From: Candidatus Moraniibacteriota bacterium
GTDB lineage: Bacteria > Patescibacteriota > Minisyncoccia > Moranbacterales > UBA11712
DNA length: 64,000 bases
NCBI GenBank assembly: GCA_028695025.1
Contig: JAQVJV010000002.1
Location: 18,998 to 82,997, forward strand
Reading direction: 5' to 3'
The position numbers and the translations under genes were made by a program. Positions within the stretch are counted from its first letter, which is position 1. The number at the start of each line of letters is the position of its first letter. Positions 2,628-63,854 of this stretch are shown in pieces. The notes under the pieces were generated by a model, which made no database searches, had not been told where the DNA came from, and was given only the letters and a program-made list of their open reading frames with translations.

Positions 2628-2767
2628 AATCGAATCAAGATACAAATCTTTTCGGGTGAACCAATCAAACCAAGCATAACTAAATATTCTTAACTAAACC
2701 ACTTAGCCAAAACCAACCGCTTCCCAGAATTTGCCGAAGCGGAAATTTGGAGAGTGGCGTGTCTTTT

Positions 2768-5700
2768 ATGTCTCAAGAGGCCAAAACCCTCGGGGTGAAA
2801 GAGTCTTTCAGCCCGCAATCCTCTCTCCATAAGAGGAAATTTTTCAACCGGCGCGCAATGGTGTCCCTTCCGAACTTGATCGAAACGCAAACCATGTCAT
2901 ATGACTGGTTTCTCGCGGAAGGTATGCGTGAACTCCTCGATGAGGTTAACCCAATTGAGGATTTCACCGGAAAAGATTTGGAACTTTCTTTTGGAAAATA
3001 TTATCTTGACGAGCCGAAATACGACGAGAAAACGTCGAAAGAAAAAAATATCTCTTTTGAGGCGCCGCTCCGGTGCGCGGTGAGCCTTCTCAACAAACAG
3101 ACCGGGGAGGTGAAAGAACAGGAAGTTTATCTTGGAGACTTGCCGATCATGACCGACCGGGGAACTTTCATCATCAACGGCGTGGAAAGAGTGGTGGTGA
3201 GCCAGCTTATCCGAAGCCCGGGAGTCTTTTTCACGATGGAATATCAGAAGGGAAAGAAACTTTTCGGGGCGAAAATCATTCCGAACCGCGGAGCTTGGCT
3301 CGAAATGGAAACGGATCTTGACGGAGCCATTTGGGTGAAAATCGACCGCAAGCGAAAAGTGGCGATCACTTCTCTTTTGCGGGCTTTTGGCATTTCCACG
3401 GACGAGCTTTTGGCCAAAACTTTCGCCGATGTGAACAAAGGCGAGACGAATTATCTTGAAGCGACGATTGGGCGCGACGCGGCGAAGACCCAGGGAGATG
3501 GATTCAAGGAGGTTTACAAAAGAATTCGTCCGGGGGATCTCGCCTCCGTTGAAAACGCGCGGCAGATGATCGAATCGATGTTTTTCAATTTTGAGAGATA
3601 CGATTTCGGAAAAGTGGGGCGATACCGCTTGAACCAGCGTTTGGATGTGGATGAGCCGAATGACGAAGCGCATCGAATTTTGCGTCCGGAAGATTTGGTG
3701 CTGATCATCAAGGAAATTATCAATCTTAATAATAATCCGATGGCGGAGCCGGATGATATCGACCACCTTGGAAACCGGCGGGTGCGTTGTGTTGGGGAGC
3801 TTGTGCAAAACAAATTTCGGGCGGGACTTGCGCGCATGGTGCGAAATATCAAAGACCGGATGAGTACTTGCGATCTTGCCATAGTTGTTCCAGGTCAACT
3901 CGTAAACTCGCGTCCGGTGGCGGCGGCAGTCAAGGAATTTTTTGCTTCTTCCCAGCTTTCGCAATTCATGGATCAGGTGAATCCGCTGGCGGAACTTGAA
4001 CACAAGCGGCGGCTTTCCGCGATGGGGCCGGGCGGTCTCACCCGCGAACGGGCAAGCTTTGAAGTGCGCGATGTCCACCATTCCCACTACGGTCGGATTT
4101 GTCCGGTGCAGACGCCGGAAGGCCCGAACATCGGATTGGTGAATCATTTGTCTTGCTACGCGCGCATCAACGAGTTCGGTTTTCTCGAGACTCCGTATCG
4201 AAAAGTTGAGTTGAAGGACGGCAAGCCGTTTGTCACCAAAGATATTGAATATTTGAACGCGACCGTGGAAGATCGGAAAGTTATTGCTCACGCGGATATC
4301 CTGATTGACGACGATGGATATATCCAGGAAGAAAAAATTGAAGCGCGGGTGAAAGGGAAGCCGTCGGTGATTGAAGCGACGAAGGTTGACTATGTCGATG
4401 TTTCGCCGAAACAGTGTATTTCAATTGCCACTTCGCTCATTCCGTTCCTTGAGCACGACGATGCTCACCGGGCTCTCATGGGTTCAAACATGCAGCGCCA
4501 GGCAGTATCTTGCATTCTGCCGGATTCGCCGCTGGTGGGAACGGGGCTTGAAGACAAAGCGGCGGCTGATTCGGGACAGGTGATCCTTGCGCGCGAAGAC
4601 GGGGAAGTGGCGGAAGTGGATGCGGCACATATCACCCTCAAGACGGAAAAAGACGGAAAATCAACGAAGAAAATTTATTGGCTCCAGAATTTCGAACGCT
4701 CGAACGCTTTCACTTGTATGAATCAGATTCCGCGGGTTTCCCGGGGACAAAAAGTGGCGAAAGGCCAGCTTCTCGCGGACGGAGCTTCGACGGACAATGG
4801 GGAATTGGCGCTCGGCCAGAATGTTTTGGTGGCGCTCATGCCTTGGGAGGGGAACAACTTTGAAGACGCTATCATCATTTCTGAACGGTTGCTTCAGGCG
4901 GATCGCTATACTTCCATTCATATTGAAGATTTTTCAGTGGATATCCGTGATACGAAGCTTGGCCCGGAAGTGGTGACGCGAGATATTCCGAATATCGGTG
5001 AAGAGCGGCTCAAAAATCTTGACGATACGGGGATCATCCATATTGGAGCGGAGGTTTCTTCGGGAGATATTCTTGTCGGGAAAATTTCACCGAAAGGGGA
5101 AGGCGATCTCACCCCGGAAGAAAGATTGCTTCGCGCCATCTTCGGAGAAAAATCAAAGGACGTGAAAGATACTTCGCTTTATCTTCCGCACGGGGAACAT
5201 GGAAAAGTGGTGGATATCAAAATCTTTTCGCGCGAGCAGGGCGACAAGCTTCCGGCAGGAGTGATCCAGCAGATTCAGGTGAGTGTGGCGCAGCTTCGCA
5301 AAATTTCAGTGGGCGACAAGCTTGCCGGACGACACGGAAACAAGGGAGTGATTTCGAAAATTGCGGCGGTCGAAGATATGCCTTGCCTTCCGGATGGCCG
5401 ACCGGTGGATATCATACTCAATCCGCTTGGAGTGGCTTCGCGTATGAACATCGGCCAGATTCTTGAGGCGCATCTCGGTTGGGCGGCTTCCGAACTCGGA
5501 TACAAAATCGCAAGTCCCGCCCTTGACGGAGTGAGCGAACAGAACATAAAAGAGGAACTTAAGAAAGCGGGCCTTCCTGAAGACGGAAAGATGCGGCTTA
5601 TGAACGGAAAGACAGGAGAGTACTTCGACGAAAAAACCATGGTGGGATATATGTATATCATGAAGCTCAACCACTTAGTGGAAGACAAAATTCACATGCG

Positions 5701-6052
5701 TTCTATCGGACCGTACTCGCTCATCACCCAGCAGCCTCTCGGCGGAAAAGCCCAATTCGGAGGCCAGCGCTTCGGGGAAATGGAAGTGTGGGCGCTCGAA
5801 GGATACGGCAGTGCGCATACGCTTCAGGAAATGATGACAATCAAATCGGACGACCAGCTCGGCCGCTCGAAAGCCTATGAATCGATCATCAAGGGCGAAC
5901 GGATCAAGAGTCCGAACATCCCGGCTTCTTTCAACGTGTTAGTAAACGAACTCAAGGGGCTTTGCCTCAATATCGAATCGGTCGGCGAGAAAACGGAAGT
6001 TGACGAGGAAGAGAAAACCGGATCGGAGAGAAAGGATGACGGAGAGGAATAA
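2768..6052 (+). CDS. rpoB: DNA-directed RNA polymerase subunit beta
   Basis: Motifs [69 protein letters not shown]. The ORF track starts at TTG 2747. ATG 2768 with GGAGAG 13 nt upstream is preferred. Confidence 0.97.
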
Positions 6053-6156: not shown

Positions 6157-9100
6157 ATGAATCAACAAAATGCCACCAAAGTGAGCGACTTCGACGCAAT
6201 CCGATTGAAGCTCGCGAGTCCCGACGATATCCTCAATTGGTCCCACGGCGAGGTGACAAAGCCGGAGACAATCAACTATCGCACCCAAAGATACGAGCGC
6301 GACGGTCTTTTTTGCGAAAAAATTTTCGGACCAGCCAAGGACTGGGAATGTTACTGCGGAAAATACAAAAAAATCCGCTATAAAGGCATCATTTGCGACA
6401 AGTGCGGCGTGGAAGTAACACGCTCGATCGTCCGGCGGGAACGGCTGGGGCATATCAAGCTCGCGGTGCCGGTTTCTCATATTTGGTTTTTGCGGGGCGT
6501 GCCTTCCAAAATCGGCTTGTCGCTCGGCATGTCGGCGCAGGAATTGGAAAAGGTGGTTTACTTTGCGAGCTATATTGTCATGGAAGTGGATGAGGATGCC
6601 CGCAAGGAAGCGCTTGACCGGCTGGAAGCGGAATACAAAGGCAAGCAGAAGAAAAGCGAATCAGAAAAAGAGAATGAAGAACTCAAGGGCGCCTATCAAG
6701 CCGGCCGGGAAGAACTCAAGAGCCTTCGCCGGTTCCAGATCCTTTCCGAAGTGGAATATTTCAATTTGTCGCTCAAATATGGCCATGTTTTCAAGGCGGG
6801 AATCGGAGCGGAAGCAGTCCGGCGTATTTTGGAAGGGCTCAATATTGAAGAGGAGATCGCCCGGATCAACAAAGAGATTGAAGACGACAAAATTTCTGAC
6901 AAGAAAAAACTTTTAAAACAACTCAAATTGTTCCAGGGGTTCAGCCAGGCCGGCCTTCGTCCCGAATGGATGCTCCCAACCGTGATCCCGGTCATTCCGC
7001 CGGATCTTCGCCCGATGGTCCAGCTTGACGGGGGACGGTTTGCGACTTCGGATCTCAACGATCTCTACCGTCGTATCATCAACCGCAACAACCGGTTGAG
7101 AAAACTGATCGAGATCGGCGCGCCGGAAGTGATTTCCCGGAACGAAAAAAGAATGCTCCAAGAAGCGGTGGATGCGCTGTTTGATAACTCTGCCCGTCGG
7201 GGACAAACTTCGGTGGCGGCTTCAACTGGACAGAAGCGGGCCCTTCGGTCGCTGGCTGATATGCTCAAAGGAAAGCAAGGACGTTTCCGCCAGAACCTTC
7301 TTGGAAAGCGGGTGGATTATTCCGGTCGGAGCGTGATTGTGGTCGGACCGAAACTGAAACTCCATCAGTGCGGTTTGCCGAAGAAAATGGCTCTTGAACT
7401 TTTCAAACCTTTCATCATCAACAAGCTGATCGAAAGGGAATATGCCCACAACGTGCGAAGCGCTGGAAAAATGGTGGAATTCGAAGCGGAAGAAGCTTAT
7501 GAAATTCTTGACGATATCATCGAACATCACTATGTGCTTTTGAACCGCGCCCCGACCCTGCACCGTTTGAGTATCCAGGCTTTCCAGCCGGTGTTCATCG
7601 AAGGAAAAGCGATCCAGATCCATCCGATGGTATGTTCGGCTTTCAACGCGGACTTCGACGGAGACCAGATGGCGGTCCATGTGCCGCTCACCGAGGAAGC
7701 GCGCACCGAAGCGGGAAACATAATGCTTTCGGCGAAAAACCTTTTGAAGCCGGCGAGCGGAGACCCGATCACGATCCCGTCGCAGGACATGGTGCTCGGT
7801 TGTTACTATATGACCCATATCATGCCGGGCCGCACCGGAGAAGGAAAAATTTTTGCAACACCCGAAGAAGCGAAACTGGCCTATCATTTCGGAAGCGTTG
7901 ATCTCAAAGCGGAAATCGAAGTGGATTTTGGAACGGAAAGAAGGAAAACTTCTGTGGGCCGGATTCTTTTCAATGAAATCATGCCGGTGGAAATCGGTTT
8001 CGTGAATGAAGAAATGGACAAAGGAAAATTGAGAAAGATTGTGGCGCAGTGCCTTGAGATATCTGGACGGGACGAAACGGCCAAATTCGTGGACGAACTC
8101 AAAAATTTGGCATTCTCGCTTGTCACCCGTTCCGGAATCAGCTGGGGGATGGATGACCTTGCTGTTCCGGAAGAAAAGAAAAAGATCATGGAAGACGCTG
8201 AAGATCGGGTGGAGCTCATCAACAAGCAATATGGCATGGGGCTTCTCACCGACCGGGAAAGAAAAAGCCAGGTGATCGAGATTTGGAGCGAAGCGAAGAA
8301 TAAAATCACGGAAGCGGTGCGCGCTTCTCTCGACAAAGAAGGCCCGGTATATTCCATGGTATATTCCAAAGCGCGCGGCACGGAAGCGGTGGTGGTGCAG
8401 ATGACCGGAATGAAAGGGCTGGTGGCCGGTCCGACCGGGGAAACGATCGAACTGCCGATCAAATCATCGTTCAAAGAAGGTTTCAACGTCCTTGAATATT
8501 TCATTGCGACCCACGGAGCCCGGAAAGGTATGGCGGACACCGCCCTTCGGACGGCGACGGCCGGATACCTGACGCGGCGGCTTGTGGATGTGGCGCAGGA
8601 TGTCGTGGTTCGGGAAGTCGATTGCGGCGACGATCGGGGAAATTTCATGTATCGCGAAGACTCGGACGTGGTCGGCATCAGCTTTGCTTCCCGCATCACC
8701 GGACGCTATTTGATCGAAGATGTGGCTGATCCCAAGACGAAAAAAGCTATCCTCAAGGCGGGAGATCTCATCACGAAAGAAAAAGCGGAAGAGATTGAAA
8801 AAGCGAAAGTGGAAAAAATAAAGATCCGGTCTGTCGTCACTTGCCAGAGCCGGCGCGGAATATGCCAGAAATGCTATGGAATGGACCTGGGCCGGAACGA
8901 ACTTGTGCAGATCGGACAAGCGGTGGGAATCGTGGCGGCGCAGGCTATCGGAGAGCCGGGAACCCAGCTCACGATGCGTACTTTCCACATCGGAGGCGTC
9001 GCCGGAACGGATATCACCCAGGGACTTCCGCGCGTGGATGAAATTTTTGAATCCCGCCCGCCGAAAGGAGAAGCCGCCATTTCCGAAGTGGACGGGCAGG

Positions 9101-9723
9101 TGGTGGAAATCAAGGAAACGGAAAAAGAAAAAATTATCCGCATCGAAACCGCTCCTGACGAGAAAGGCAAAAAAGATACTCACGAATATGTTGTTTCCTC
9201 GGTCATGAACCTCGAGGTGGCAAAAGACGATCTCGTGGCCAAAGGGCAGGTGCTTTCCGAAGGGCATCTCGATCTCAAAAAACTTTTCAAGATTGAGGGT
9301 GAAGAAGCGGTCTACCGCTATATCATCAAGGAAGTGCAGGAAATATATTCCGCGCAAGGGGAAGGCATCAACGACAAGCATATCGAGGTGATCATCCGCC
9401 AGATGCTCTCGCGGGTGCGGATCCTTGATCCGGGCGACACGACCCTTCTTCCGGGAGACGTGGTGGAAGATGTCCAGCTTGTGGAAGCGAACGATATTGC
9501 GAAGAACGCCGGAAAAAATATCGCGACCGGCGAGAAACTGCTTCTCGGGATTTCGAAAGTGGCGCTTTCCACGGAAAGCTTCCTCTCGGCGGCATCTTTC
9601 CAGGAAACGGCGAAAGTTCTCATCAACGCGGCGGTCACCGGAAAGGAAGACAAACTTCGGGGCTTGAAAGAAAACGTAATCATCGGAAAACTGATCCCGG
9701 CGGGAACGGGATATCGGAAGTAG
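6157..9723 (+). CDS. rpoC: DNA-directed RNA polymerase subunit beta'
   Basis: [14 protein letters not shown] catalytic motif and the N-terminal zinc-binding region [29 protein letters not shown]. 1188 aa. Confidence 0.97.
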
Positions 9724-9754
9724 TGTTTTATTTGTTTATATTTTCCTTATAGTT

Positions 9755-9967
9755 ATGGATGAGTGGAAATTAATCGAAAAAACAAAACCTATTGAAAATA
9801 AGATCAATAATGCCCTTTCATATCTTCCTTCACTTAGAGAGGCTCGAGAAAAACATATACAAACATCGACAAGAAATTCAAACGCCAATGAGATTTGTTG
9901 GGAAGAGATGACGCGAGAATTTGTTGGACATTTAGGCAATATATTCAAAGAAGATTTCTTCGCATAG
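9755..9967 (+). CDS. Hypothetical small protein
   Basis: 70-aa ORF in AT-rich accessory DNA. Convergent with, and overlapping, a minus-strand small ORF. Coding status uncertain. Confidence 0.2.
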   Translation: MDEWKLIEKTKPIENKINNALSYLPSLREAREKHIQTSTRNSNANEICWEEMTREFVGHLGNIFKEDFFA

Positions 9968-10147
9968 TTTGGAAATTTCTTCAGCTTCCTTTTCGGCGCT
10001 TCGGACAATTTTTTTGTATTCGATCAGAATCAAATCATCTGTTTCTGAAGAACTTTTTTCATCTTTAGGTATAAGAGAAGAATCCATCATTTCCGGTGGC
10101 AGTTTTTTTCTTTGATCTGATTTTATTTTGTCAGTCAAAAATTCCAT
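9932..10147 (-). CDS. Hypothetical small acidic protein
   Basis: K/E-rich ORF (MEFLTDKIKSDQRKK...) directly downstream of the HEPN gene on the minus strand. The ORF track extends to 10231, overlapping HEPN. Confidence 0.25.
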   Translation of the reverse strand: MEFLTDKIKSDQRKKLPPEMMDSSLIPKDEKSSSETDDLILIEYKKIVRSAEKEAEEISKLCEEIFFEYIA

Positions 10148-10161
10148 GGCTGGAAAATATC

Positions 10162-10569
10162 CTATATCTTCAATCTCGCTTGTTTTCCGTGAAGCACCCG
10201 GTCGGCTTTTGAGAATATGGACTTGGTCCATTTTAAATATTCATCAGCCTCCTTTTTCGAAATTATTGCTCCGCCGCCATAAAGATCCCAATTTCTCTTT
10301 GCCCTCATTTCGTTGGCAAATACTTCGACTTCCGAATCGGAGAGGAGGCTGGAGAGTTTTTTGATGAGTTCGATGTGGTGGCCTCTTCTTGATTTCACCC
10401 GCAGATTTTGGCTGGCGCAAACCGCAATGGCCAGTTTGAGAAGCGCGTCGTAGCAAAAGCGAAAAGATACTTCGGCCACATTCGCTTCGCTGGCAATTCG
10501 AAAATCTCTTTGGGCGGATTTATGGTATTTTTCGATTTGTTTTCGGGAAAATTTGAAATGCTCGAACAT
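10162..10569 (-). CDS. HEPN-domain protein (HepT-like toxin of a HEPN/MNT pair)
   Basis: Rx4-6H motif in NLRVKSRRGHHIELI. 135 aa. Its start abuts the stop of the upstream nucleotidyltransferase (10569/10570). Confidence 0.7.
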   Translation of the reverse strand: MFEHFKFSRKQIEKYHKSAQRDFRIASEANVAEVSFRFCYDALLKLAIAVCASQNLRVKSRRGHHIELIKKLSSLLSDSEVEVFANEMRAKRNWDLYGGGAIISKKEADEYLKWTKSIFSKADRVLHGKQARLKI

Positions 10570-11115
10570 TCAAAATATTTTTATTGTTTTTTGCGAAAAT
10601 ATGTTTTTGATGAATTCATCTTTTTTCTTTCGGCGGATTTTCAGCTCGTTTCCCGTCATGTCCACGATATTCAGCTCCCGTCCCAATTTTTTCTCGAGCG
10701 GCAGAATCAAGCGCTTGGCCGAGAGGGAAGAGTGGCTTCCGACAAGCAGCAAATCAATGTCGCTTTCCTGCTGAAAAGAGTTTTTGGCGAAAGAGCCGAA
10801 AATCCAAGCCGATTCCAGCCCTTTTATTTTTTCCATTTCTTCTTTCAGGAGGTTCGCGACTCCGTATTTGGCATTATAGATTTGTTTTGTTTCCTTGAGA
10901 AGAGGATATTTTTCGTTGAGAAAAAAGTATTTTTGGTTTCCGGCCGCTTCCGAAAGCAAAATGCCTTCCTGTTCCAATTCCTTGAGCTTGCGAAAGAGAT
11001 TTCCCGGATCAGCTTCCAGAATTTCGGCCAGTTCGTTGATGTAATGTCTCCGGTGCGGATTGAGAAAGAAATATCCGAGCACTTTCACAGTGATTTTTGA
11101 GCGGAATTCAAGCAT
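10570..11115 (-). CDS. Minimal nucleotidyltransferase with N-terminal wHTH (MntA-like antitoxin)
   Basis: GSFAKNSFQQESDIDLLLV matches the GS-x(9-13)-DxD minimal NTase motif. N-terminal wHTH NELAEILEADPGNLFRKLKELEQEGIL. Confidence 0.75.
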   Translation of the reverse strand: MLEFRSKITVKVLGYFFLNPHRRHYINELAEILEADPGNLFRKLKELEQEGILLSEAAGNQKYFFLNEKYPLLKETKQIYNAKYGVANLLKEEMEKIKGLESAWIFGSFAKNSFQQESDIDLLLVGSHSSLSAKRLILPLEKKLGRELNIVDMTGNELKIRRKKKDEFIKNIFSQKTIKIF

Positions 11116-11165
11116 ATTATTGCAATTATTTACAATGATTATTGTATATATTCACAATAATATTG

Positions 11166-12614
11166 TCAAATTTCCCACACCTTCTCCAAAATATAATACA
11201 AATTCTCATCGCCCTTTCCGGTCGGGAGCTCCGCGCGCCGGGTTTCGATGATCTTGAATCCGGTGAGGCGGGCGAGGTTTTCGATGTCTTCAGGAGAATA
11301 GCAATAGCGGGTGGAAAAATGTTCTCCATTGGGAGAATCGTGAACTGTTCCTTCACGGATGTTGTATATGCCTTTCGCGTTCATCAATTTTTTGTATTCC
11401 CCGACATTTTCGGCATAAACCCCTTTTTCCCGGTCGGGTATGTCGAAGACAAATTTTCCTCCCGGCTTCAAGATGCGCGCGGCTTCGCGGAAAAGCCGGA
11501 CTTGCCCGGGAAGGGAGTATTCATGGAGGATGTTTCTTCCGAGCGAATAAACCGCGTCGAATTCCCGGTCTTCGTAGGGCGTATGGTGCCAGTCTTCTAT
11601 GGAAACGCGGGCGTTGGGGTCTTGTTTTTTTATCTCCTCGATATTTTCCGGTGTGATATCATATCCGGAAATTTCATAGCCGGCTTTTTTCATCTCAAGT
11701 AGCAGTCTTCCCGTTCCACATCCGGATTCGAGCACCTTGCTTCCCGGAGAAATGATTTCTTTGAGAAGAGAAACTTCTTTCTCATTGAGTTCCTTGTTGA
11801 GTTGGTGTTCTTTGATGTTGAATTTTCGATAAAAATCCTCAAGTTTTGCAAAAACCTCCTTGTCTTTGGTGGGGACGAGATAGGCGCGGGCGTTTTTCAA
11901 ATTTTCAGCCGCGTTTTGGTCATTTTCCTTTTCGCTCTTGATAATGAGGCCGTTGATTTTCTTGAGAGCCTCTCCCGCGCCGATGAGGTCGGTGAAGAGG
12001 ATAATGGTGAATTCATTTTTTTGTCCAAGAGGTTTTTGTTCGAGATGGCCAAGTAACTTTGTGGAAGAATATTCAGTGTCATAATCCATTATCAATTTGA
12101 TAAAAATTCTTTTCGTTCCGTCAATATCGCCCGGAAATGTTTCTATGAGCCTGGAAATTATGTCGATATTGTCTCTTCTCAAAGATGCGTTTTCCCGTTG
12201 AGATTGAAGCATTGCTCCAATAGACATTGTAAGCGGTCCTTCTCCACCGCGGTGGCGGTCATTTTTTTCCAAATCAAAATGTTTTGCGTAAGTCTCAATC
12301 GTTCTTTTCGCCATACCATAGCTGTCCAGTGGCGATTCTTTTCTGAAATAAACGTGCAATTTTTCCTCGAGAAAAAAGAGGAGCTTTGTTTTCCAGAATT
12401 TCATTGCGGCGATATCATGCGCCGCGTGTTCTCCCAAGGCATTTTTTGTCTTTTCATCAATTTCGAATTCAAGTATTCGGACCAAGAAATCCGGATCGTA
12501 TCTGACTTCAGAAGATTTTGCAATACTCTCTATCTTCCGCAGTTTCTCTTGAAAGTTTTCTATGATTGTTTTTGGAGAATCTATTTTGATTTTTTCCGGA
12601 TGTTCTTTTTCCAT
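11166..12614 (-). CDS. Two-domain protein: unknown N-terminal domain fused to a class I SAM-dependent methyltransferase
   Basis: C-terminal VLESGCGTGRLLLEMKKAGYEISGYDIT...DAVYSLGRNILHEY...LKPGGKFVF (motifs I, post-I, II). The first ~280 aa match no family I recognise; it contains a GEHAAHDIA motif. Confidence 0.7.
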   Translation of the reverse strand: MEKEHPEKIKIDSPKTIIENFQEKLRKIESIAKSSEVRYDPDFLVRILEFEIDEKTKNALGEHAAHDIAAMKFWKTKLLFFLEEKLHVYFRKESPLDSYGMAKRTIETYAKHFDLEKNDRHRGGEGPLTMSIGAMLQSQRENASLRRDNIDIISRLIETFPGDIDGTKRIFIKLIMDYDTEYSSTKLLGHLEQKPLGQKNEFTIILFTDLIGAGEALKKINGLIIKSEKENDQNAAENLKNARAYLVPTKDKEVFAKLEDFYRKFNIKEHQLNKELNEKEVSLLKEIISPGSKVLESGCGTGRLLLEMKKAGYEISGYDITPENIEEIKKQDPNARVSIEDWHHTPYEDREFDAVYSLGRNILHEYSLPGQVRLFREAARILKPGGKFVFDIPDREKGVYAENVGEYKKLMNAKGIYNIREGTVHDSPNGEHFSTRYCYSPEDIENLARLTGFKIIETRRAELPTGKGDENLYYILEKVWEI

Positions 12615-12644
12615 GATGCCATTATATCATTTTCGAAATAAAAA

Positions 12645-12682
12645 AAGGAGAAAGCCGGCGCGTGGTTGGCGCGAGCTTTCTC
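12645..12682 (-). terminator. Rho-independent terminator after the 126-aa ORF
   Basis: GGAGAAAGCCGGCGCGTGGTTGGCGCGAGCTTTCTCC hairpin. On the minus strand it is followed by a T-run (plus AAAAAAAGG at 12651-12659). Confidence 0.6.
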
Positions 12683-12782
12683 CCAAAACCCTAGTGGCTC
12701 GTTTTTGTTGAAGCGGATCCGATAACCGCTGAATTTTTCACGCGAAGTGTTTGCCATCAGGCTGGAGTCGCGACATCTCCTT

Positions 12783-13163
12783 CTATTTTTTCTGCCAACC
12801 TTCCGAAGGCGACCACTGCCAGCCGCCCTCAAAAGACTTGTTTTTCAGGAAAGGAACGTGATCCTCTATCTCGCTCCTTCCCTCCCAGACAAAGTCGGAA
12901 AGTTTGAGCTTTCCGGCTTTGTCTGAGTATTGATAAACTGTCGGGCGACGGTGGTCGCCCGGGGCACAATAGACGACGACTTCTATGTCGCCATCTATTG
13001 CCTCGAACTCGACCATGTCGAATGGCCGAGTTGACCCCTTTGTGGGGGTCGGGTTGGAACCGTCGGCACGGTATTCGTGCCGCCATACCCAATTCTTTAT
13101 TTCCGTAATCATTTTCCCTCCGCCCGCCGTCCGTGGCAGGCAACTTTTTTGAATTCTTTTCAA
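12783..13163 (-). CDS. Hypothetical protein
   Basis: 126-aa ORF in a locally GC-rich stretch. No recognisable motifs. Alternative start near 13112. Confidence 0.35.
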   Translation of the reverse strand: MKRIQKSCLPRTAGGGKMITEIKNWVWRHEYRADGSNPTPTKGSTRPFDMVEFEAIDGDIEVVVYCAPGDHRRPTVYQYSDKAGKLKLSDFVWEGRSEIEDHVPFLKNKSFEGGWQWSPSEGWQKK

Positions 13164-13291
13164 TTCCGCGCCAGTGTAAGTTTTCCTTTGCGCGGGATTG
13201 TTTCTTTCGGCGAATCGCCGCAGGAATTGTGAAAATGTTTTCGCAGCTCTTGCAGCGATTCACCCTTATTCAATTTTCAAAGATCTTTTCC

Positions 13292-13311
13292 TCCAGCACT
13301 AACTTTGGACT
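13292..13311. repeat. Left 20-bp perfect inverted repeat TCCAGCACTAACTTTGGACT
   Basis: Exact reverse complement of 13571-13590. Confidence 0.9.
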
Positions 13312-13322
13312 ATAATGCATTT

Positions 13323-13583
13323 ATGCATTATGTATATTTTCTAAAAAATGAATCTGGTGAAATATATATTGGATGCACTAGCGATTTGAGAAAAAGATTG
13401 ATCGAACACAATCGCGGTTATTCCAATTATACTCGCGGTCATCAATGGAAACTCGTTTACTATGAAGCCTACTTTTCAAGAATTGATGCCGAGACAAGAG
13501 AGAAAAGGCTCAAATATCACGGACAGGCTTTGGCTCAATTAAAGAGGCGCATAAAGAAAAGTTTCCTTTCAGTCCAAAGTTAG
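13323..13583 (+). CDS. GIY-YIG nuclease family protein (YhbQ/UPF0213-like)
   Basis: MHYVYFLKNESGEIYIGCTSDLRKRLIEHN carries the GIY-YIG signature. The ORF track starts at TTG 13305; ATG 13323 is preferred. The stop codon lies inside the right inverted repeat. Confidence 0.8.
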   Translation: MHYVYFLKNESGEIYIGCTSDLRKRLIEHNRGYSNYTRGHQWKLVYYEAYFSRIDAETREKRLKYHGQALAQLKRRIKKSFLSVQS

Positions 13584-13590
13584 TGCTGGA
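13571..13590. repeat. Right 20-bp perfect inverted repeat AGTCCAAAGTTAGTGCTGGA
   Basis: Exact reverse complement of 13292-13311. Confidence 0.9.
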
Positions 13591-13686
13591 TCCACAAAAA
13601 TGCCAATGAGTCGGGGATTGATAAGAAGAGAGTAAATAATCAATCACATGCCAACTCACTGGCATATTTGAGGCTCTCTTCTTGAG

Positions 13687-13812
13687 GCTTGTTTTTTTAA
13701 TAAGCCTGACCTCTTGCTCAACGAATTGAGCAAGAGAACCACTTATTACTTCCGGAACGGTTGCCGGAAGGCGAAGCAGTTTCGTTTCCGCACTCTTTAT
13801 CTCTCTTCTTGC
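13687..13812 (+). ncRNA. Candidate structured RNA region (hairpins; SRP-RNA-domain-IV-like GCC-GGAA-GGC...AAGCAG motif)
   Basis: No credible ORF in the ~560-bp span 13600-14170. Perfect 11-bp hairpin CTCTTGCTCAA-CGAA-TTGAGCAAGAG at 13711-13737. CGGAAC...GTTTCG helix enclosing TTGCC-GGAA-GGCGAAGCAG. Speculative. Confidence 0.2.
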
Positions 13813-14074
13813 TAGTCTGTTATAAAGAATGTTTGGGTATTCCCTCTGCTTCGTGGCCGTTGAAAGCCGTTTCATCAGAGGATATTCTTCCCTAAGAGCT
13901 TATTATCCTGCGATAAAACTGGACTATTTGATTATTTGCTGAAAGAACTCTCTTCTTAGCCAGCTGCTTTTTCAGCTTGACTGGGTAGTATAGCATTTTG
14001 TAGACGGATTGTCAAGATTAGGGTCAAAAATATTTGAGATTTGAGATGATAGTCTTGAGAAATGGGCTTATATA

Positions 14075-14103
14075 TTGACAAATATGGCTGTTTCTGCTAG
14101 AAT
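14075..14103 (+). promoter_or_regulatory. Putative sigma70 promoter for TrmB-like regulator 2 (TTGACA, 17 bp, TAGAAT)
   Basis: TTGACA 14075-14080 and TAGAAT 14098-14103. GCTTATATATTG... is homologous to the promoter region at 262-302. Confidence 0.55.
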
Positions 14104-14173
14104 ATAAATAACGACCTAAAGACCGACAAATATCGCATAACGCGTAACTCGTAACGCAAAACGCAACAAACGG

Positions 14174-14926
14174 ATGCTATCTAACGATCTCGAAAAACTG
14201 GGCTTGAGCGACAAGGAAGCCAAAGTATATTTGGCGGTTTTGGAGTTGGGGGAGGGAAATATCGCCCAAATTGCCAAAAAATCGGGCGTGAAGCGGACGA
14301 CAGTCTATGATATCGCGCTCTCGCTAAAAAGTAAGAATTTATTGCTGGAAACCATGAAAGGCAAAAAAAATATCTATTCCGCCGAAGATCCCCGGAAATT
14401 GGACGATGTCTATGACGAGCGAAAGGCGACGCTCAAAAAGATTTTGCCGGAACTGCTTTCAGTCATGAACGCGATTGAGAAAAAGCCGCGCATCCGATAT
14501 TTTGAGGGCGCGGAAGGAATCAAGGAAGTTTATAAAGACACGCTCAAATATCCCGACCAGGAAATCCAGGCTTGGGTGACGAGTGAAGCGATGACCAAAT
14601 TCGACGTTGAATGGCTCGAAAAATATTATGTGCCCAAGCGCCTTGAGAAAAAAATCTGGGCGCGGGTGATTGCGCCAAAAACAGAGGAGGTTGTCGATTA
14701 TCAAGAACGCGATGAAAAGTCTTTGCGGCAAACACGATTGGTCGACCCGAAAGAATTTCCCATGGAAGTGGAGATCAATCTCTATGGCGGGCGGAACATC
14801 GGGGTCATGGCTTTTGGCGAGCAGATGGGCCTTGTCATTGAGAGCCGGAAGATATACAAAACGCTTAAGAGCATATTTGAGCTTGGCTGGAAATCTCTCG
14901 AAAAATATGCTAAGATGAATCAGTAA
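14174..14926 (+). CDS. TrmB-family transcriptional regulator (paralog 2)
   Basis: LSDKEAKVYLAVLELGEGNIAQIAKKSGVKRTTVYDIALSLKSKNLL wHTH. The C-terminus aligns with paralog 1 (KKIWARV..., ...VIESRKIYKTLKSIFE). Confidence 0.7.
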   Translation: MLSNDLEKLGLSDKEAKVYLAVLELGEGNIAQIAKKSGVKRTTVYDIALSLKSKNLLLETMKGKKNIYSAEDPRKLDDVYDERKATLKKILPELLSVMNAIEKKPRIRYFEGAEGIKEVYKDTLKYPDQEIQAWVTSEAMTKFDVEWLEKYYVPKRLEKKIWARVIAPKTEEVVDYQERDEKSLRQTRLVDPKEFPMEVEINLYGGRNIGVMAFGEQMGLVIESRKIYKTLKSIFELGWKSLEKYAKMNQ

Positions 14927-15029: not shown

Positions 15030-17321
15030 ATGGGCAGAAAAAAGAAAAAAGACAAAGAAAAAAACGGGAACGGCGGCGGAAATGGAAATGGCGGCGGGCT
15101 ATCGGCCCTCAAAAGCGACACAAAGCGGTCCATCATCGCTGTTTTTCTGATTGCCTTTGCACTGCTTGCCGTTTTCAGCCTTTTCGGCGGAGCGGGAACT
15201 TTTGGAAAATATCTCGACAAAGGTTTGGGTCTTGCACTTGGAATCGGGCGGTATATTTTGCCGGTGCTTCTTATTGCGGTCGGGTTCCTTTATTTCCGCC
15301 GGGACGAGGAGGCGTATTACGTCTTTGTGGCGGTGGGCTTTTTTCTGTTCCTTGCGAGCATCCTTGGCACGGTCCATATTTTCTATCCTCTTGAAAAAAT
15401 GGTAGCGGCGGCAAAAGCCGGGCAGGGCGGCGGATTTTTGGGGGCGGCGCTTGCCTATCCCGCGCTCAAGTTTTTCGGCTTTTCGGCTAGCCTTATTGTT
15501 TTGGTAGCGGTGGCTCTTGCTTCGCTTCTTCTCGCGCTCAATATGCCGCTTCGGGCGCTTTTCCGGCCGATGGAATGGATGAAATGGAAGAAGGAGAATG
15601 ATGAGGAAGATGAACCGGCTGATGCCAAAGCCGCGGCGAGCAAAGAAAAAAAAGGGTCGGTATATATTGAAGAAAAACCTTCAACAGCGGCAAGAATCAG
15701 CGAGCTTCTCAAGCGAAAAACGGAAAAACCGGATGTTCCCGAAAGAAAAGCGCCGATGGTTGACCGGCAAAGGACGATCGCCGGATGGAAATTGCCGCCG
15801 CTTGACCTTCTTGAACGCTCGAGCGGGAAAGCGAAGCCCGGCGACATTGAAGCCAACGCCAAAACCATCCAGGAGACTTTTAAAAATTTCGGGATCGAAG
15901 TGGAGATCGGGGATATCAGCGTCGGTCCGTCCGTAACACAGTATTGTTTTAAGCCGGCGGCGGGGATCCGGCTTTCGAAGATCACCGGCCTCAACAATAA
16001 TCTGTCTCTCGCGCTCGCGGCGCATCCGATCCGGATCGAGGCGCCGATTCCCGGCAAGTCTCTTATTGGAATCGAAGTGCCGAACAAGACGTCGACGATG
16101 GTGCGCCTGCGCGATCTCATCGAAAGCGATGAATTTGCGGAGAGAAAATCGAATCTCACGCTTTGTCTTGGAAAAGACGTGGCCGGGAACTATATCTTGG
16201 GGGATCTCACTGAAATGCCGCACTTGATGATTGCCGGAGCGACCGGAACCGGAAAAAGTGTGGGGATCAATACGATCATTACGTCACTTCTCTATCAAAA
16301 CTCACCGGATGATTTGAAGCTCATTTTGGTTGACCCGAAGCGGGTGGAACTCACGGGATACAACGGCATTCCGCATCTTCTGACTCCGACGGTAGTAGAG
16401 AATGGGAAGGTGGCGAATGCTCTCAAGTGGGCGGTGGGAGAAATGGAGCGACGCTACAAAACGCTCCAGGAAGCCGGATCGAGGGATATCCATTCGTATA
16501 ACGGAAAAATCAGGGTCGGCCAGAAGAAAGAAATCATCGACGAAGAAACCGGAGAGGTGGTTGGCGAAGAGGAAGTGAAACGTTTGCCGTTCATTGTCAT
16601 CATCATCGACGAGCTGGCCGATATCATGGCCTCCCACTCGAAAGAAGTGGAGGCGGCGATCGTGCGCCTCGCGCAGATGGCGCGGGCGGTGGGAATCCAT
16701 CTCATTGTTTCGACCCAGCGGCCGTCGGTGGAAGTTCTCACCGGCCTCATCAAGGCCAACATCACGACGCGCATCGCTTTCCAGGTCGCGACACAGATCG
16801 ATTCGCGGACGATCCTTGATATGTCGGGAGCGGAAAAATTGCTCGGGAACGGGGATATGCTTTTCCTTTCCGCCCGGTCGCCCAAACCGCGGCGCATCCA
16901 AGGCGTTTTTGTTTCGGAATCGGAAGTGAAGCGGGTGGTGAAATCGATCAAGGGCCAATTGGAAGGAGAGGTGGAATATGACGATGAAGTGACGGCTCCC
17001 CAGCGGGTGAGTCTTGGCGGAAAAATGACGGGCGGGACGGGCGAAGAAGACGGGGATGATCTCTATGAAGATGCCAAAGACACGGTGGTGAAATCCGGGA
17101 AAGCCTCGGCCTCGCTTCTTCAGCGACGCCTTCGGGTGGGATATGCCCGGGCGGCGCGGCTTCTTGACCTTTTGGAAGCCAACGGCGTGATCGGGCCGGC
17201 GGACGGATCGAAAGCCCGGGAAATATTGGTTGATGGGCCGATGGCGCCTGCGTCTTCAGCCGAAGTTGAGTACGAGGACGAATTGGCCGACCAGTCAAAA
17301 AGGGACCGTTGGCAGATGTGA
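15030..17321 (+). CDS. ftsK: DNA translocase FtsK/SpoIIIE
   Basis: N-terminal Gly/Asn-rich tail and TM helices. Walker A GATGTGKSV. RLAQMARAVGIHLIVSTQRPS. C-terminal gamma (winged-helix) domain. Confidence 0.95.
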   Translation: MGRKKKKDKEKNGNGGGNGNGGGLSALKSDTKRSIIAVFLIAFALLAVFSLFGGAGTFGKYLDKGLGLALGIGRYILPVLLIAVGFLYFRRDEEAYYVFVAVGFFLFLASILGTVHIFYPLEKMVAAAKAGQGGGFLGAALAYPALKFFGFSASLIVLVAVALASLLLALNMPLRALFRPMEWMKWKKENDEEDEPADAKAAASKEKKGSVYIEEKPSTAARISELLKRKTEKPDVPERKAPMVDRQRTIAGWKLPPLDLLERSSGKAKPGDIEANAKTIQETFKNFGIEVEIGDISVGPSVTQYCFKPAAGIRLSKITGLNNNLSLALAAHPIRIEAPIPGKSLIGIEVPNKTSTMVRLRDLIESDEFAERKSNLTLCLGKDVAGNYILGDLTEMPHLMIAGATGTGKSVGINTIITSLLYQNSPDDLKLILVDPKRVELTGYNGIPHLLTPTVVENGKVANALKWAVGEMERRYKTLQEAGSRDIHSYNGKIRVGQKKEIIDEETGEVVGEEEVKRLPFIVIIIDELADIMASHSKEVEAAIVRLAQMARAVGIHLIVSTQRPSVEVLTGLIKANITTRIAFQVATQIDSRTILDMSGAEKLLGNGDMLFLSARSPKPRRIQGVFVSESEVKRVVKSIKGQLEGEVEYDDEVTAPQRVSLGGKMTGGTGEEDGDDLYEDAKDTVVKSGKASASLLQRRLRVGYARAARLLDLLEANGVIGPADGSKAREILVDGPMAPASSAEVEYEDELADQSKRDRWQM

Positions 17322-55770: not shown

Positions 55771-55815
55771 ATTCACAAGTGTCCTCGGCAGGAATTTCAC
55801 CCCGCACCATTTCAT

Positions 55816-55887
55816 TCTCCTCGGCAGGAATCGAACCTGCATAACCAGCTTAGAAGGCTAGTGTTCTATCCGTTGAACTACGAGGAG
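55816..55887 (-). tRNA. tRNA-Arg (anticodon TCT), flanked by the 13-bp inverted repeat CCCCGCACCATTT/AAATGGTGCGGGG
   Basis: CTCCTCG acceptor. CTAGC-CTTCTAA-GCTGG anticodon arm. GCAGG-TTCGATT-CCTGC T arm. Leader and trailer are complementary. Confidence 0.85.
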
Positions 55888-55909
55888 GATAAATGGTGCG
55901 GGGGGCGGG

Positions 55910-55961
55910 CCTGCATAACCAGCTTAGAAGGCTAGTGTTCTATCCGTTGAACTACGAGGAC
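55910..55961 (-). pseudogene. 52-nt duplicate of the 5' part of tRNA-Arg(TCT), truncated after the 5' T-stem
   Basis: Identical to 55836-55887 except the first nucleotide. Followed by CCCGCCCCCC instead of the T-loop. Confidence 0.6.
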
Positions 55962-63187: not shown

Positions 63188-63784
63188 TTGAAAATATTAA
63201 GCCGCCGATTCTATTCTCAAAACACAATCAAGATTGCCCAAGAACTTCTGGGTTGTTTTCTTGTCCGGGAATATCGCGGAAAAATTATGAAAGTGATAAT
63301 CACGGAAACAGAAGCCTATATTGGGGAAAATGATTTGGCGTGTCATGCGTCGCGCGGTCGGACGCCGCGGACGGAAGTGATGTATGGCGTGCCGGGGCAT
63401 GCCTATGTATATATGATCTATGGGATGTATCATTGCCTGAATGTTGTGACGGAAGAAAAAGATTTTCCCGCGGCGGTTTTGATCCGGGGCGGGATAAATC
63501 CCTCTCCAGCTCTCCCTTTAGCAAAGGGAGAGAGTCCGGGTTTCCCCCTTTGGCAAAGGGGGACTAAGGGGGATTTAAACGGTCCCGGAAAACTCTGCCG
63601 GTTTTTGAAAATTGACCGAAAACTTAATACATGGGATCTCACAAAAAGCGAGAAATTGTGGATTGAGGAACGAGATTCGAAAATAAAATTGCCGAAAGTG
63701 ATAAAGTCTCGGCGTATTGGCATCGATTATGCGAAACATTGTAAAGAATATTTATGGAGATATTCCCTGTCATCCCGCACTTGA
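63188..63784 (+). CDS. mpg: DNA-3-methyladenine glycosylase (Mpg/AAG family) carrying an in-frame palindromic-repeat insertion
   Basis: ETEAYIGENDLACHASRGRTPRTEVMYGVPGHAYVYMIYGMYHCLNVV...AVLIRGG[INPSPALPLAKGESPGFPLWQRGTKGDL]NGPGKL...RIGIDYA. The bracketed segment is encoded by two hairpin repeats. Confidence 0.8.
   Translation: MKILSRRFYSQNTIKIAQELLGCFLVREYRGKIMKVIITETEAYIGENDLACHASRGRTPRTEVMYGVPGHAYVYMIYGMYHCLNVVTEEKDFPAAVLIRGGINPSPALPLAKGESPGFPLWQRGTKGDLNGPGKLCRFLKIDRKLNTWDLTKSEKLWIEERDSKIKLPKVIKSRRIGIDYAKHCKEYLWRYSLSSRT
63505..63575. repeat. Two palindromic hairpin repeats inside mpg (CTCTCCCTTT-AGCA-AAGGGAGAG and CCCCCTTTG-G-CAAAGGGGG)
   Basis: Same repeat family as the intergenic copies. 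Located in a surface-loop position of Mpg. Reading frame preserved. Confidence 0.85.
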
Positions 63785-63854
63785 TGCGGGATCCAGAGAT
63801 ATATCTAGTTATGTTTTCTGGATCCCGGCTCAAAGGCCGGGATGACATAATCTA

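Follow-up and report, generated by a model that had tools for sequence, protein, structure and literature searches.

A probable insertion hot spot between rpoC and the TrmB-FtsK genes of a Moranbacteria genome, with a candidate structured RNA gene and a repeat-framed GIY-YIG cassette

Ssn proteins are nucleases with a single GIY-YIG domain; they cleave single-stranded DNA beside the hairpin repeats by which their own genes are flanked (PMC11893778, Nat Commun 2025). A gene with a comparable arrangement is located between rpoC and the gene of a TrmB-family helix-turn-helix (HTH) regulator in the metagenome-assembled genome of a Candidatus Moraniibacteriota bacterium, and this rpoC-to-TrmB interval, together with a candidate structured RNA gene that lies in it, is the subject of the present analysis. 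The interval was studied in a stretch of 64,000 nucleotides (assembly GCA_028695025.1, contig JAQVJV010000002.1, positions 18,998 to 82,997 of the forward strand), which is called the window below. As in Ssn, the product is a single-domain GIY-YIG protein of about 90 amino acids (here 86) without a DNA-binding domain, an inverted-repeat sequence more conserved than the protein lies on both sides of the gene, and related short hairpin elements are scattered nearby, here those of a second repeat type. However, a single long-range repeat pair brackets the open reading frame (ORF) in the window, whereas Ssn genes have a complete hairpin on each side. Within the 64 kb, the 20-mer of the window is not dispersed, unlike the Ssn repeats (NTS/SRM), the nearest solved relatives of the protein are UPF0213 proteins, which hints at a subfamily other than cd10448 (GIY-YIG_unchar_3), and the host belongs to the Patescibacteria, a group unmentioned in PMC11893778.

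Other described systems resemble further parts of the interval and its relatives. The REP/BIME sequences with their RAYT proteins and the NIME/dRS3 elements of Neisseria are short palindromes that bracket variable segments, with the cognate nuclease gene itself flanked by repeats, and the same is seen for elements with CCCCGCAC ends. In contrast to REP/RAYT, the nuclease here is of the GIY-YIG type instead of a Y1 (HUH) transposase and the copy number in the available DNA is low; unlike REP/BIME and NIME/dRS3, one CCCCGCAC element carries a whole tRNA gene. Large structured non-coding RNAs of bacteria such as OLE, ROOL, GOLLD and raiA were, like the candidate RNA, found by intergenic comparison. 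They share with it a length of several hundred nucleotides, a multi-helix structure with strong covariation, conserved loops and a pseudoknot, and a promoter and terminator of their own. The candidate differs from them in having no Rfam match, a very narrow distribution and a distinctive repeated AGAAGAGAG motif. The MNT-HEPN toxin-antitoxin modules (type VII MntA/HepT; candidate system PDC-M05 in PADLOC) consist, as does one gene pair of the interval, of adjacent, translationally coupled genes for a minimal nucleotidyltransferase (GS..DxD) and a HEPN-fold protein (R-x6-H). The nucleotidyltransferase studied here additionally carries an N-terminal winged HTH domain, and the activity of the pair is predicted from its family. 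Finally, the profile of mad2 from methylation-associated defence (MADS) matches the methyltransferase of the interval co-linearly and at similar length (492 versus 482 residues), but only the generic methyltransferase core is matched, there are no mad neighbours, and the gene is a syntenic resident, not island cargo.

The rpoC-to-TrmB-FtsK interval is quite probably a hot spot of recombination and insertion on a conserved backbone, that is, a mosaic and not a single island. This assessment comes from comparison of the window with loci of related bacteria, numbered L002, L003 and so on, which were gathered by looking up contigs encoding homologous proteins (L003 and L085 are two contigs of one genome). 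In L002, rpoB-rpoC is followed after 153 nt by the convergent methyltransferase gene, then by 1.1 kb without genes, which holds the RNA, and then by TrmB-FtsK-RodZ-RecA. In L003, whose rpoC is 89% identical, one unrelated 109-aa ORF stands between rpoB-rpoC and the methyltransferase gene. The order rpoB-rpoC, methyltransferase on the minus strand, RNA, TrmB-FtsK is kept in L002, and L003 and L085 are consistent with it, while L004, L020, L088 and L089 have the methyltransferase 2-8 kb upstream of the TrmB ortholog or a close paralog. Altogether, the methyltransferase is in the same position, convergent with rpoC and/or upstream of TrmB-FtsK, in at least six related genomes, and the gap between it and TrmB ranges from nothing (L002) over small ORFs (L004) to 6-8 kb of orphan genes (L088, L089). 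The TrmB orthologs, at 64-86% identity, adjoin FtsK in the related loci, and TrmB is a conserved neighbour of both the RNA gene and ftsK.

An earlier note on this DNA had read the interval as one 4.4-kb accessory block. All the features that it listed are present at the coordinates it gave: a coupled MNT/HEPN pair, an N-terminal domain fused to a methyltransferase, a GC-rich 126-aa ORF with a terminator, a GIY-YIG gene between perfect 20-bp inverted repeats, and a hairpin-rich ORF-free region. Because relatives share the position of the methyltransferase gene, of the GIY-YIG cassette and of the 'ORF-free' region, however, the block is not a single insertion; it is for these three that gene order downstream of rpoC is conserved. 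The accessory label holds for the remainder, since the MNT/HEPN pair, the spacer ORFs and the 109-aa ORF are absent from L002, L003, L004, L020, L088 and L089. The relatives have modules of their own: L085 contains two MNT/HepT pairs near its TrmB ortholog (994-1621 and 3506-4381), and L090 contains a HicB/HicA pair (1299-1785). As relatives insert differing toxin-antitoxin pairs around TrmB, the neighbourhood appears to capture such modules repeatedly. The backbone common to close relatives would comprise the rpoC-convergent methyltransferase with its fast-changing N-terminal region, the RNA of ~388 nt and the 299-bp GIY-YIG cassette. This genome alone would have gained three additions: the winged-HTH-MNT/HEPN module, which lies between rpoC and the stop codon of the methyltransferase gene, an AT-rich spacer and an orphan 109-aa gene.

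The GIY-YIG cassette (Table 1) is framed by perfect 20-bp inverted repeats (TCCAGCACTAACTTTGGACT and its complement), of which none are expected by chance and which form the longest long-range inverted repeat in the 64 kb. The same cassette stands right after the RNA terminator in L085, L086 and L087, where the protein is 73-77% identical. Between the window and these three loci the repeats are identical over 19-20 of 20 nt, and no relationship is seen in the DNA that precedes the left repeat. In L002 all that is left of the cassette is 15 nt of one arm and apparently the last few GIY-YIG codons. Among 8 relatives the catalytic residues Y5, Y15, G17, R25, H29, N30 and E60 do not vary. At 8 of the 9 GIY-YIG loci (4 of 5 independent insertions), the gene is bracketed by a perfect repeat pair of 13 nt or more; this holds for only 0.23% of 3000 random intervals of the same size. 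Phage-borne UPF0213-like genes, which served as a control set, have no bracketing repeats. The cassettes are constant in size, at 274-301 bp. Judged by this conservation, the 20-bp repeats are probably under strong selection, and the nuclease is predicted to be catalytically intact. The GIY-YIG protein would recognise the stem of the flanking repeats in single-stranded DNA and cut there, as Ssn nucleases do. By analogy, the cassette probably works like an Ssn/repeat pair, without being filed as an Ssn member.

Two cassettes of more distant Patescibacteria, in L035 (10720-11003) and L045 (15005-15319), have repeats of their own and end 0-4 nt from the 5' end of a tRNA gene (tRNA-Tyr and tRNA-Ala, respectively). 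These tRNA-adjacent cassettes and the single repeat copy in L002 prompted the idea that the repeats are an inverted duplication of the target. It was rejected because L002 looks like a decayed cassette and the L045 repeat includes only 4 nt of the tRNA.

A conceivable but rather doubtful alternative is that the GIY-YIG gene and its repeats form an active miniature transposon, similar to an insertion sequence (IS) or to a miniature inverted-repeat transposable element (MITE), with the repeats as ends and the nuclease as transposase. Cassettes of constant size with terminal inverted repeats do occur at different sites in different genomes, and CCCCGCAC...GTGCGGGG ends bracket GIY-YIG genes, gene-less inserts and a tRNA copy, which looks like a set of autonomous and non-autonomous elements. 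An IS-like layout was also noted in the Ssn paper (PMC11893778). However, the window cassette occupies the same site in four diverged genomes and has therefore been immobile for long, and its repeat is not found a second time in the 64 kb. A consistent target-site duplication was not found among the cassettes: identical 3-bp flanks occur in the window (TCC/TCC) and in L086 (TTC/TTC), whereas those of L085 and of the other cassettes differ. In the loci compared, each cassette type was seen at one orthologous site. In addition, we know of no GIY-YIG protein of this size that acts as a transposase.

A second cassette type, with the ends ACCCCGCACTTTT/AAAAGTGCGGGGT, is located inside the TrmB leader in L005 and L089. 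The same (A)CCCCGCAC...GTGCGGGG(T) ends bracket gene-less inserts of 36-111 nt, two of which sit in loops of the RNA gene (L005, L085) and leave its helices undisturbed. This repeat type is present in 2-3 copies per 12-15 kb in L005 and L089. The gene-less elements resemble non-autonomous forms related to the second GIY-YIG cassette type. In the window itself, a tRNA-Arg(TCT)-like gene (55780-55960, minus strand) is apparently interrupted after the 5' strand of its T-stem by an insert of ~115 nt. In it, a complete second tRNA-Arg(TCT) (55816-55887, called by tRNA finders) is preceded by CCCCCCGCACCATTT and followed by AAATGGTGCGGGG; beyond the insert comes the 3' remainder TTCCTGCCGAGGACA of the interrupted gene. 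The insert shares its CCCCGCAC/GTGCGGGG ends with the GIY-YIG cassettes and gene-less inserts of related genomes. Elsewhere in the window, TGTCATCCCGCACTTGATGCGGGATCCAG (63768-63796) is the sole match to the published consensus of the Ssn-related motif (SRM). It is unrelated to GIY-YIG loci and forms a hairpin, ATCCCGCA/TGCGGGAT, that resembles the CCCCGCAC repeat core.

The hairpin-rich region that the earlier note called ORF-free is a candidate for an undescribed, stand-alone structured RNA gene. In blastn comparison with the related loci, positions 13591-14173 are conserved at 66-81% identity upstream of TrmB orthologs, and this conservation of the DNA begins at the first base after the right inverted repeat. 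The conserved sequence extends over ~388 nt from a minus-strand promoter to a long hairpin, which is followed by UUUUUGUGGA. The terminator hairpin with its UUUUU is found in all aligned sequences, and the promoter hexamers on both strands are invariant in the five that were aligned. A profile search retrieved full-length homologs in L002, L005, L085, L086 and L087 and a partial one at the end of L090. A second copy of the divergent promoter block (window 13953-14133), 73% identical, is located in L004 at 10402-10583, just downstream of the methyltransferase gene, where it faces different genes. The promoter module itself has thereby undergone duplication or relocation.

The secondary structure was derived with RNAalifold from an alignment of five distinct sequences, from which two lineage-specific insertions had been removed. 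It comprises 83 base pairs, 91.8% of them paired across the sequences, and 23 of the 83 show compensatory changes. None of 500 shuffles reached the observed values on any of five measures, and when the pairing partners were slid by 1-3 columns, pairing fell to 34-44% and the number of compensatory pairs to 2-9. One hairpin has been fully rewritten between genomes and is still paired (CUCUUGCUCAA/UUGAGCAAGAG versus CAUCGGUCCGA/UCGGGCCGAUG). The RNA of the window folds at -136 kcal/mol (z = -6.7), and in all five sequences the minus strand folds better than the plus strand, with many G-U pairs on the minus strand. A pseudoknot of 10-13 bp, in which the third AGAAGAGAG pairs with the terminator loop CUCUCUUCU, can be formed in six of six sequences; compensatory double changes in it turn A-U into G-C and C-G into A-U, and one pair is a G-U wobble. 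The possibility that the structured region is junk or the scar of a mobile element was rejected in favour of an RNA gene. RNase P, tmRNA, 6S RNA, group I introns and the known large RNAs were likewise rejected, as no model match or signature sequence was present. Among the 4227 families of Rfam 15 there was no relevant match at E<=10 in the window or at E<=1 in four homologous loci, and a scan of viral contigs with the exact 20-mer of the RNA terminator found nothing. The RNA would be transcribed divergently from the TrmB-type regulator, from a sigma-70-type promoter to an intrinsic terminator. It might act as a regulatory or scaffold RNA, in which three exposed AGAAGAGAG tracts and one complementary loop permit alternative pairings.

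It is unlikely that the conserved region is instead a long 5' leader or attenuator of the riboswitch kind, in which the terminator and pseudoknot gate read-through into minus-strand genes, ancestrally the methyltransferase. In L002 the methyltransferase gene does lie ~500 nt downstream of the RNA on the same strand, and in the window both the 109-aa ORF and the methyltransferase gene are also on the strand of the RNA. The terminator loop is able to pair with any of the three identical purine tracts, as in attenuators, and the same promoter drives protein genes in L004. However, the sequence downstream of the RNA terminator differs in every genome, so that an independent RNA is favoured over a leader: it holds an antisense GIY-YIG gene, opposite-strand toxin-antitoxin genes (L085) or an unrelated 342-aa ORF (L086). 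Moreover, the methyltransferase gene of the window has another strong terminator (12647-12683) and what looks like its own -10 box ahead of it, and no known riboswitch family matches.

It is possible, though tentative, that the RNA represents a large structured RNA class new to science and found in Patescibacteria, working with one of its two constant neighbours, the TrmB-type regulator or the GIY-YIG nuclease, and that in parallel the cassettes are an undescribed family of hairpin-bounded elements. In the same joint and equally tentative reading, that family may include the gene-less and tRNA-carrying CCCCGCAC derivatives and may be akin to Ssn/NTS or REP/RAYT, with a different GIY-YIG subfamily. 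The undescribed RNA and the repeat-framed cassettes appear to be the most interesting content of the interval, as seen in few, closely related metagenomic sequences. Several results speak against the interpretation given so far. The repeat 20-mer occurs in the 64 kb only as the two arms of the cassette, whereas Ssn repeats are dispersed, and the solved structures nearest to the GIY-YIG protein are the UPF0213 proteins BH0048 (3.6e-5) and EF2693. The SRM consensus HGTCWYN0-2YYVSBRHN0-5WNVSBRGN0-2RNCYNB has no match within 500 bp at 8 GIY-YIG loci. Since this consensus is unmatched and UPF0213 is nearest, the Ssn-like mechanism is an analogy only. The RNA is known in six related metagenomic lineages of one Moranbacteria clade, and when 85 further Patescibacteria loci were scanned with a covariance model of the RNA core, no match came up; the element may be young and narrow in distribution. 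As only 5-6 closely related lineages carry it, the covariation statistics are drawn from few sequences. The methyltransferase, counted here as part of the backbone, is confined to a family-level clade, and the more distant rpoC loci L060, L070 and L083 lack it.

In the methyltransferase protein, residues 14-287 form an all-helical N-terminal part, and residues 293-478 a class I S-adenosylmethionine (SAM) methyltransferase. The fusion claimed in the earlier note is supported by the AlphaFold model, which has a predicted local distance difference test (pLDDT) score of 82 and comprises ~270 residues of helices and then a Rossmann methyltransferase. The closest homologs are 64-68% identical over residues ~180-482, whereas residues 1-175 are not alignable to the three closest relatives and ~25% identical to more distant family members. 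The DNA of the N-terminal region (12015-12614) has a GC content of 0.38, compared with 0.47 for the core (11166-12014). From the low GC content and the unalignable sequence, the N-terminal part has been exchanged or is fast-evolving, which suggests domain replacement within a resident methyltransferase gene. The PADLOC profile mad2 is co-linear with residues 231-400 (5e-19). Apart from a trivial mad1 HTH match on TrmB (0.028), PADLOC found no other MADS genes nearby, and the [DNS]PP[YFWH] motif, (D/N/S)PP(Y/F), of DNA methyltransferases does not occur in the protein. Its structural neighbours are generic class I enzymes, namely methyltransferases acting on small molecules, peptides and tRNA. 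The TATAAT box of the methyltransferase gene (TGATATAAT, 12614-12629) ends 6-7 nt before the ATG with no ribosome-binding site between them, and the same is true of the GIY-YIG gene (13311-13323). A TATAAT box so close to the ATG without a ribosome-binding site suggests leaderless mRNAs for both genes.

The two genes of the minimal nucleotidyltransferase (MNT)/HEPN pair are adjacent and co-oriented, and they match both component profiles of PADLOC PDC-M05 (PDC-M05A to MNT at 1.2e-39, PDC-M05B to the HEPN protein at 5.8e-13). The MNT protein has a winged HTH domain of the MarR/ArsR type (MarR-type HTH, 3e-4) and, over residues 90-170, matches to Pfam Polbeta (1.6e-9) and NTP_transf_2 (6.6e-9). 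The active-site motif G[GS]x9-13DxD is present (GS..DxD, in the sequence FGSFAKNSFQQESDIDLLL), and matches to minimal nucleotidyltransferases in the PDB are weak. The protein is not an equivalog of characterised MntA, with 30.9 bits against the curated cutoff of 60 for NCBIfam NF047752. The HEPN protein scores under the Pfam HEPN cutoff (E 0.021, 15.4 bits versus 22) and was therefore modelled, with 36 homologs. The AlphaFold model has a pLDDT of 90, and its six best Foldseek matches in the PDB are all HEPN proteins, with a probability of ~1.0 and template modelling (TM) scores of 0.52-0.66, but weak E-values from 5e-3 upward; the top matches include 2hsb, 3o10, 2q00, 1wol and MntA-HepT 7bxo. 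R57 and H64, which form R57-x6-H64, and R89-N93 are invariant in the 36 homologs, and R57-x6-H64 is a candidate RNase motif. The coupled pair of HTH-nucleotidyltransferase and Rx6H protein described in the earlier note is thus borne out by the PADLOC match, the HEPN fold and this motif. Members of this HEPN family, at 59-74% identity, are numerous in Patescibacteria, where their only annotation is hypothetical protein. With the HEPN protein below the Pfam cutoff and the nucleotidyltransferase below that for MntA, the pair belongs to a distinct subfamily.

The pair has its own promoter-like site, TTGACA-17-TACAAT, with 11 of 12 matches in a promoter scan. It occupies exactly the gap that separates the stop codon of the methyltransferase gene from the MNT start, and the 39-nt palindrome around it may be an operator. 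A homologous pair, adjacent and in the same layout, is found in an unrelated neighbourhood without the methyltransferase (L098-L107). As far as can be judged from its family, the MNT/HEPN pair would be an ordinary, self-contained module of the toxin-antitoxin type, inserted only in this genome. In such a module, the HEPN protein would act as an RNase toxin, the MNT protein would restrain it by nucleotidylylation or binding, and MNT would repress its own operon through the HTH domain. For the interval as a whole, the sequences show gene content, synteny, conservation, RNA structure and repeat statistics, and all biochemical activities are predictions.

It is very improbable that the 4.4 kb as a whole form a single accessory islet of the defence or mobile kind, in which nucleotidyltransferase-HEPN and methyltransferase act together, for example in RNA-targeting defence with a modification component. 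The GC content is low and patchy, the methyltransferase, MNT and HEPN genes are adjacent and co-oriented, and the methyltransferase has a hypervariable N-terminal region, a trait of many conflict genes. PADLOC recognises both the pair (PDC-M05) and the methyltransferase core (mad2, 5e-19). Nevertheless, the islet is largely refuted by the synteny of the methyltransferase, the RNA and the GIY-YIG cassette in relatives without the pair. The joint action put forward in the earlier note finds no support either: each partner occurs without the other, the methyltransferase at six loci and the homologous pair in L098-L107, and the pair has its own promoter. The PADLOC check that the note recommended returned the PDC-M05 pair, but only a partial mad2 core and no MADS system; there is no other MADS gene and no DNA-methyltransferase motif.

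The GC-rich orphan ORF (GC 0.52), reported earlier as 126 aa with its own terminator hairpin, likely starts at ATG 13112 and then encodes 109 aa. It has no match in Pfam, NCBIfam or PADLOC and is missing from all related loci compared, and an exhaustive search of 1.84 billion representative proteins returned only itself. The AT-rich spacer downstream of rpoC has a GC content of 0.33, as against 0.46 for the whole window, and no similarity to it is found in L002 or L003. Its two ORFs have no family match in Pfam, NCBIfam or PADLOC and no homolog in the related loci, and there is no support at all for them as genes. The terminator-like hairpin in the spacer could be the end of the rpoC transcript. 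The idea that the 'ORF-free' region codes for an ATG-started 121-aa minus-strand ORF (13510-13875), so that its conservation would be coding constraint, can practically be dismissed despite partial tblastn matches of 31-66% in L085-L087, because no reading frame is conserved there: against this frame, each of the homologs shows 3-9 indels that shift it, and their longest ORFs lie in differing frames and on differing strands. Moreover, tblastx matches the two strands equally well, substitutions in the helices are compensatory, and the ORF extends through the right repeat into the GIY-YIG gene.

Table 1. Features of the rpoC-to-TrmB interval and its flanks, in window coordinates, and gene-less elements in related loci, in coordinates of those loci.
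Feature	Position	Strand	Remarks
rpoB	2747-6052	+	
rpoC	6157-9723	+	stop at 9723 is the left flank of the studied interval
AT-rich spacer	9724-10161	both	specific to this genome
two overlapping convergent spacer ORFs	9755-9967; 9932-10231	+; -	second overlaps the HEPN gene by 70 nt
terminator-like hairpin	10084-10108	+	terminator scan
HEPN-like protein, 135 aa, presumed toxin	10162-10569	-	starts at the base after the MNT stop codon
winged-HTH + MNT protein, 181 aa, presumed antitoxin and autorepressor	10570-11115	-	stop abuts HEPN start
promoter-like site of the MNT/HEPN pair	11098-11179	-	TTGACA-17-TACAAT, 11169 to 11141, inside a 39-nt imperfect palindrome
methyltransferase, 482 aa	11166-12614	-	convergent with rpoC
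intrinsic terminator of the 109-aa ORF	12647-12683	-	15-bp GC-rich stem and T-run; inverted repeat scan and sequence reading
small GC-rich orphan ORF	12783-13112 (109 aa)	-	ATG 13112 behind GGAGGG ribosome-binding site; 126 aa from TTG 13163
GIY-YIG cassette, 299 bp	13292-13590	+	
left repeat of the cassette	13292-13311	+	
TATAAT box of the cassette	13311-13316	+	
small hairpin of the cassette	13312-13331	+	contains the ATG
GIY-YIG ORF, 86 aa	13323-13583	+	Pfam GIY-YIG 1.2e-12
right repeat of the cassette	13571-13590	+	overlaps the GIY-YIG stop codon
region without conserved ORF	13584-14173		
candidate new structured RNA gene, ~388 nt	~13981 to ~13594	-	
three invariant AGAAGAGAG purine motifs	13956-13948, 13809-13801, 13682-13674		RNA gene
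hairpin loop UUAGGGAAG	13895-13887		RNA gene; the presenting hairpin covaries
fully covarying hairpin	13736-13711		RNA gene
terminator hairpin	13665-13600		RNA gene; loop CUCUCUUCU at 13632-13624
U-tract	13600-13596		RNA gene, 3' end
divergent promoter region	13987-14103	both	conserved
RNA promoter	14015-14010 (TTGACA), 13992-13987 (TATACT)	-	TTGACA-17-TATACT; 11/12 matches in promoter scan
TrmB promoter	14075-14103	+	TTGACA-17-TAGAAT; 11/12 matches; followed by conserved leader AACGACCTAAAGACCGACA
TrmB-family HTH regulator	14174-14926	+	Pfam TrmB 4.3e-16; context, right flank of the interval
FtsK	15030-17321	+	after TrmB
gene-less CCCCGCAC/GTGCGGGG elements	L005 112-222, 1189-1298; L085 2428-2508; L089 3734-3769; L081 12017-12086		

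For annotation, the interval teaches that low GC content and several defence-like domains in a row behind a core operon are not enough to call an island; here it was synteny that distinguished a mobile toxin-antitoxin pair from resident genes. Patescibacteria have tiny genomes, and very few regulatory RNAs have been described in them. For a new RNA class in this group, a covarying RNA of ~390 nt that matches no Rfam family is a concrete candidate. The cassettes, in turn, would extend the Ssn idea of a tiny nuclease with its own flanking repeats to a probably different subfamily, another repeat geometry and another phylum, and they hint at how short palindromic elements, and even a copy of a tRNA gene, move in the genomes of Patescibacteria.

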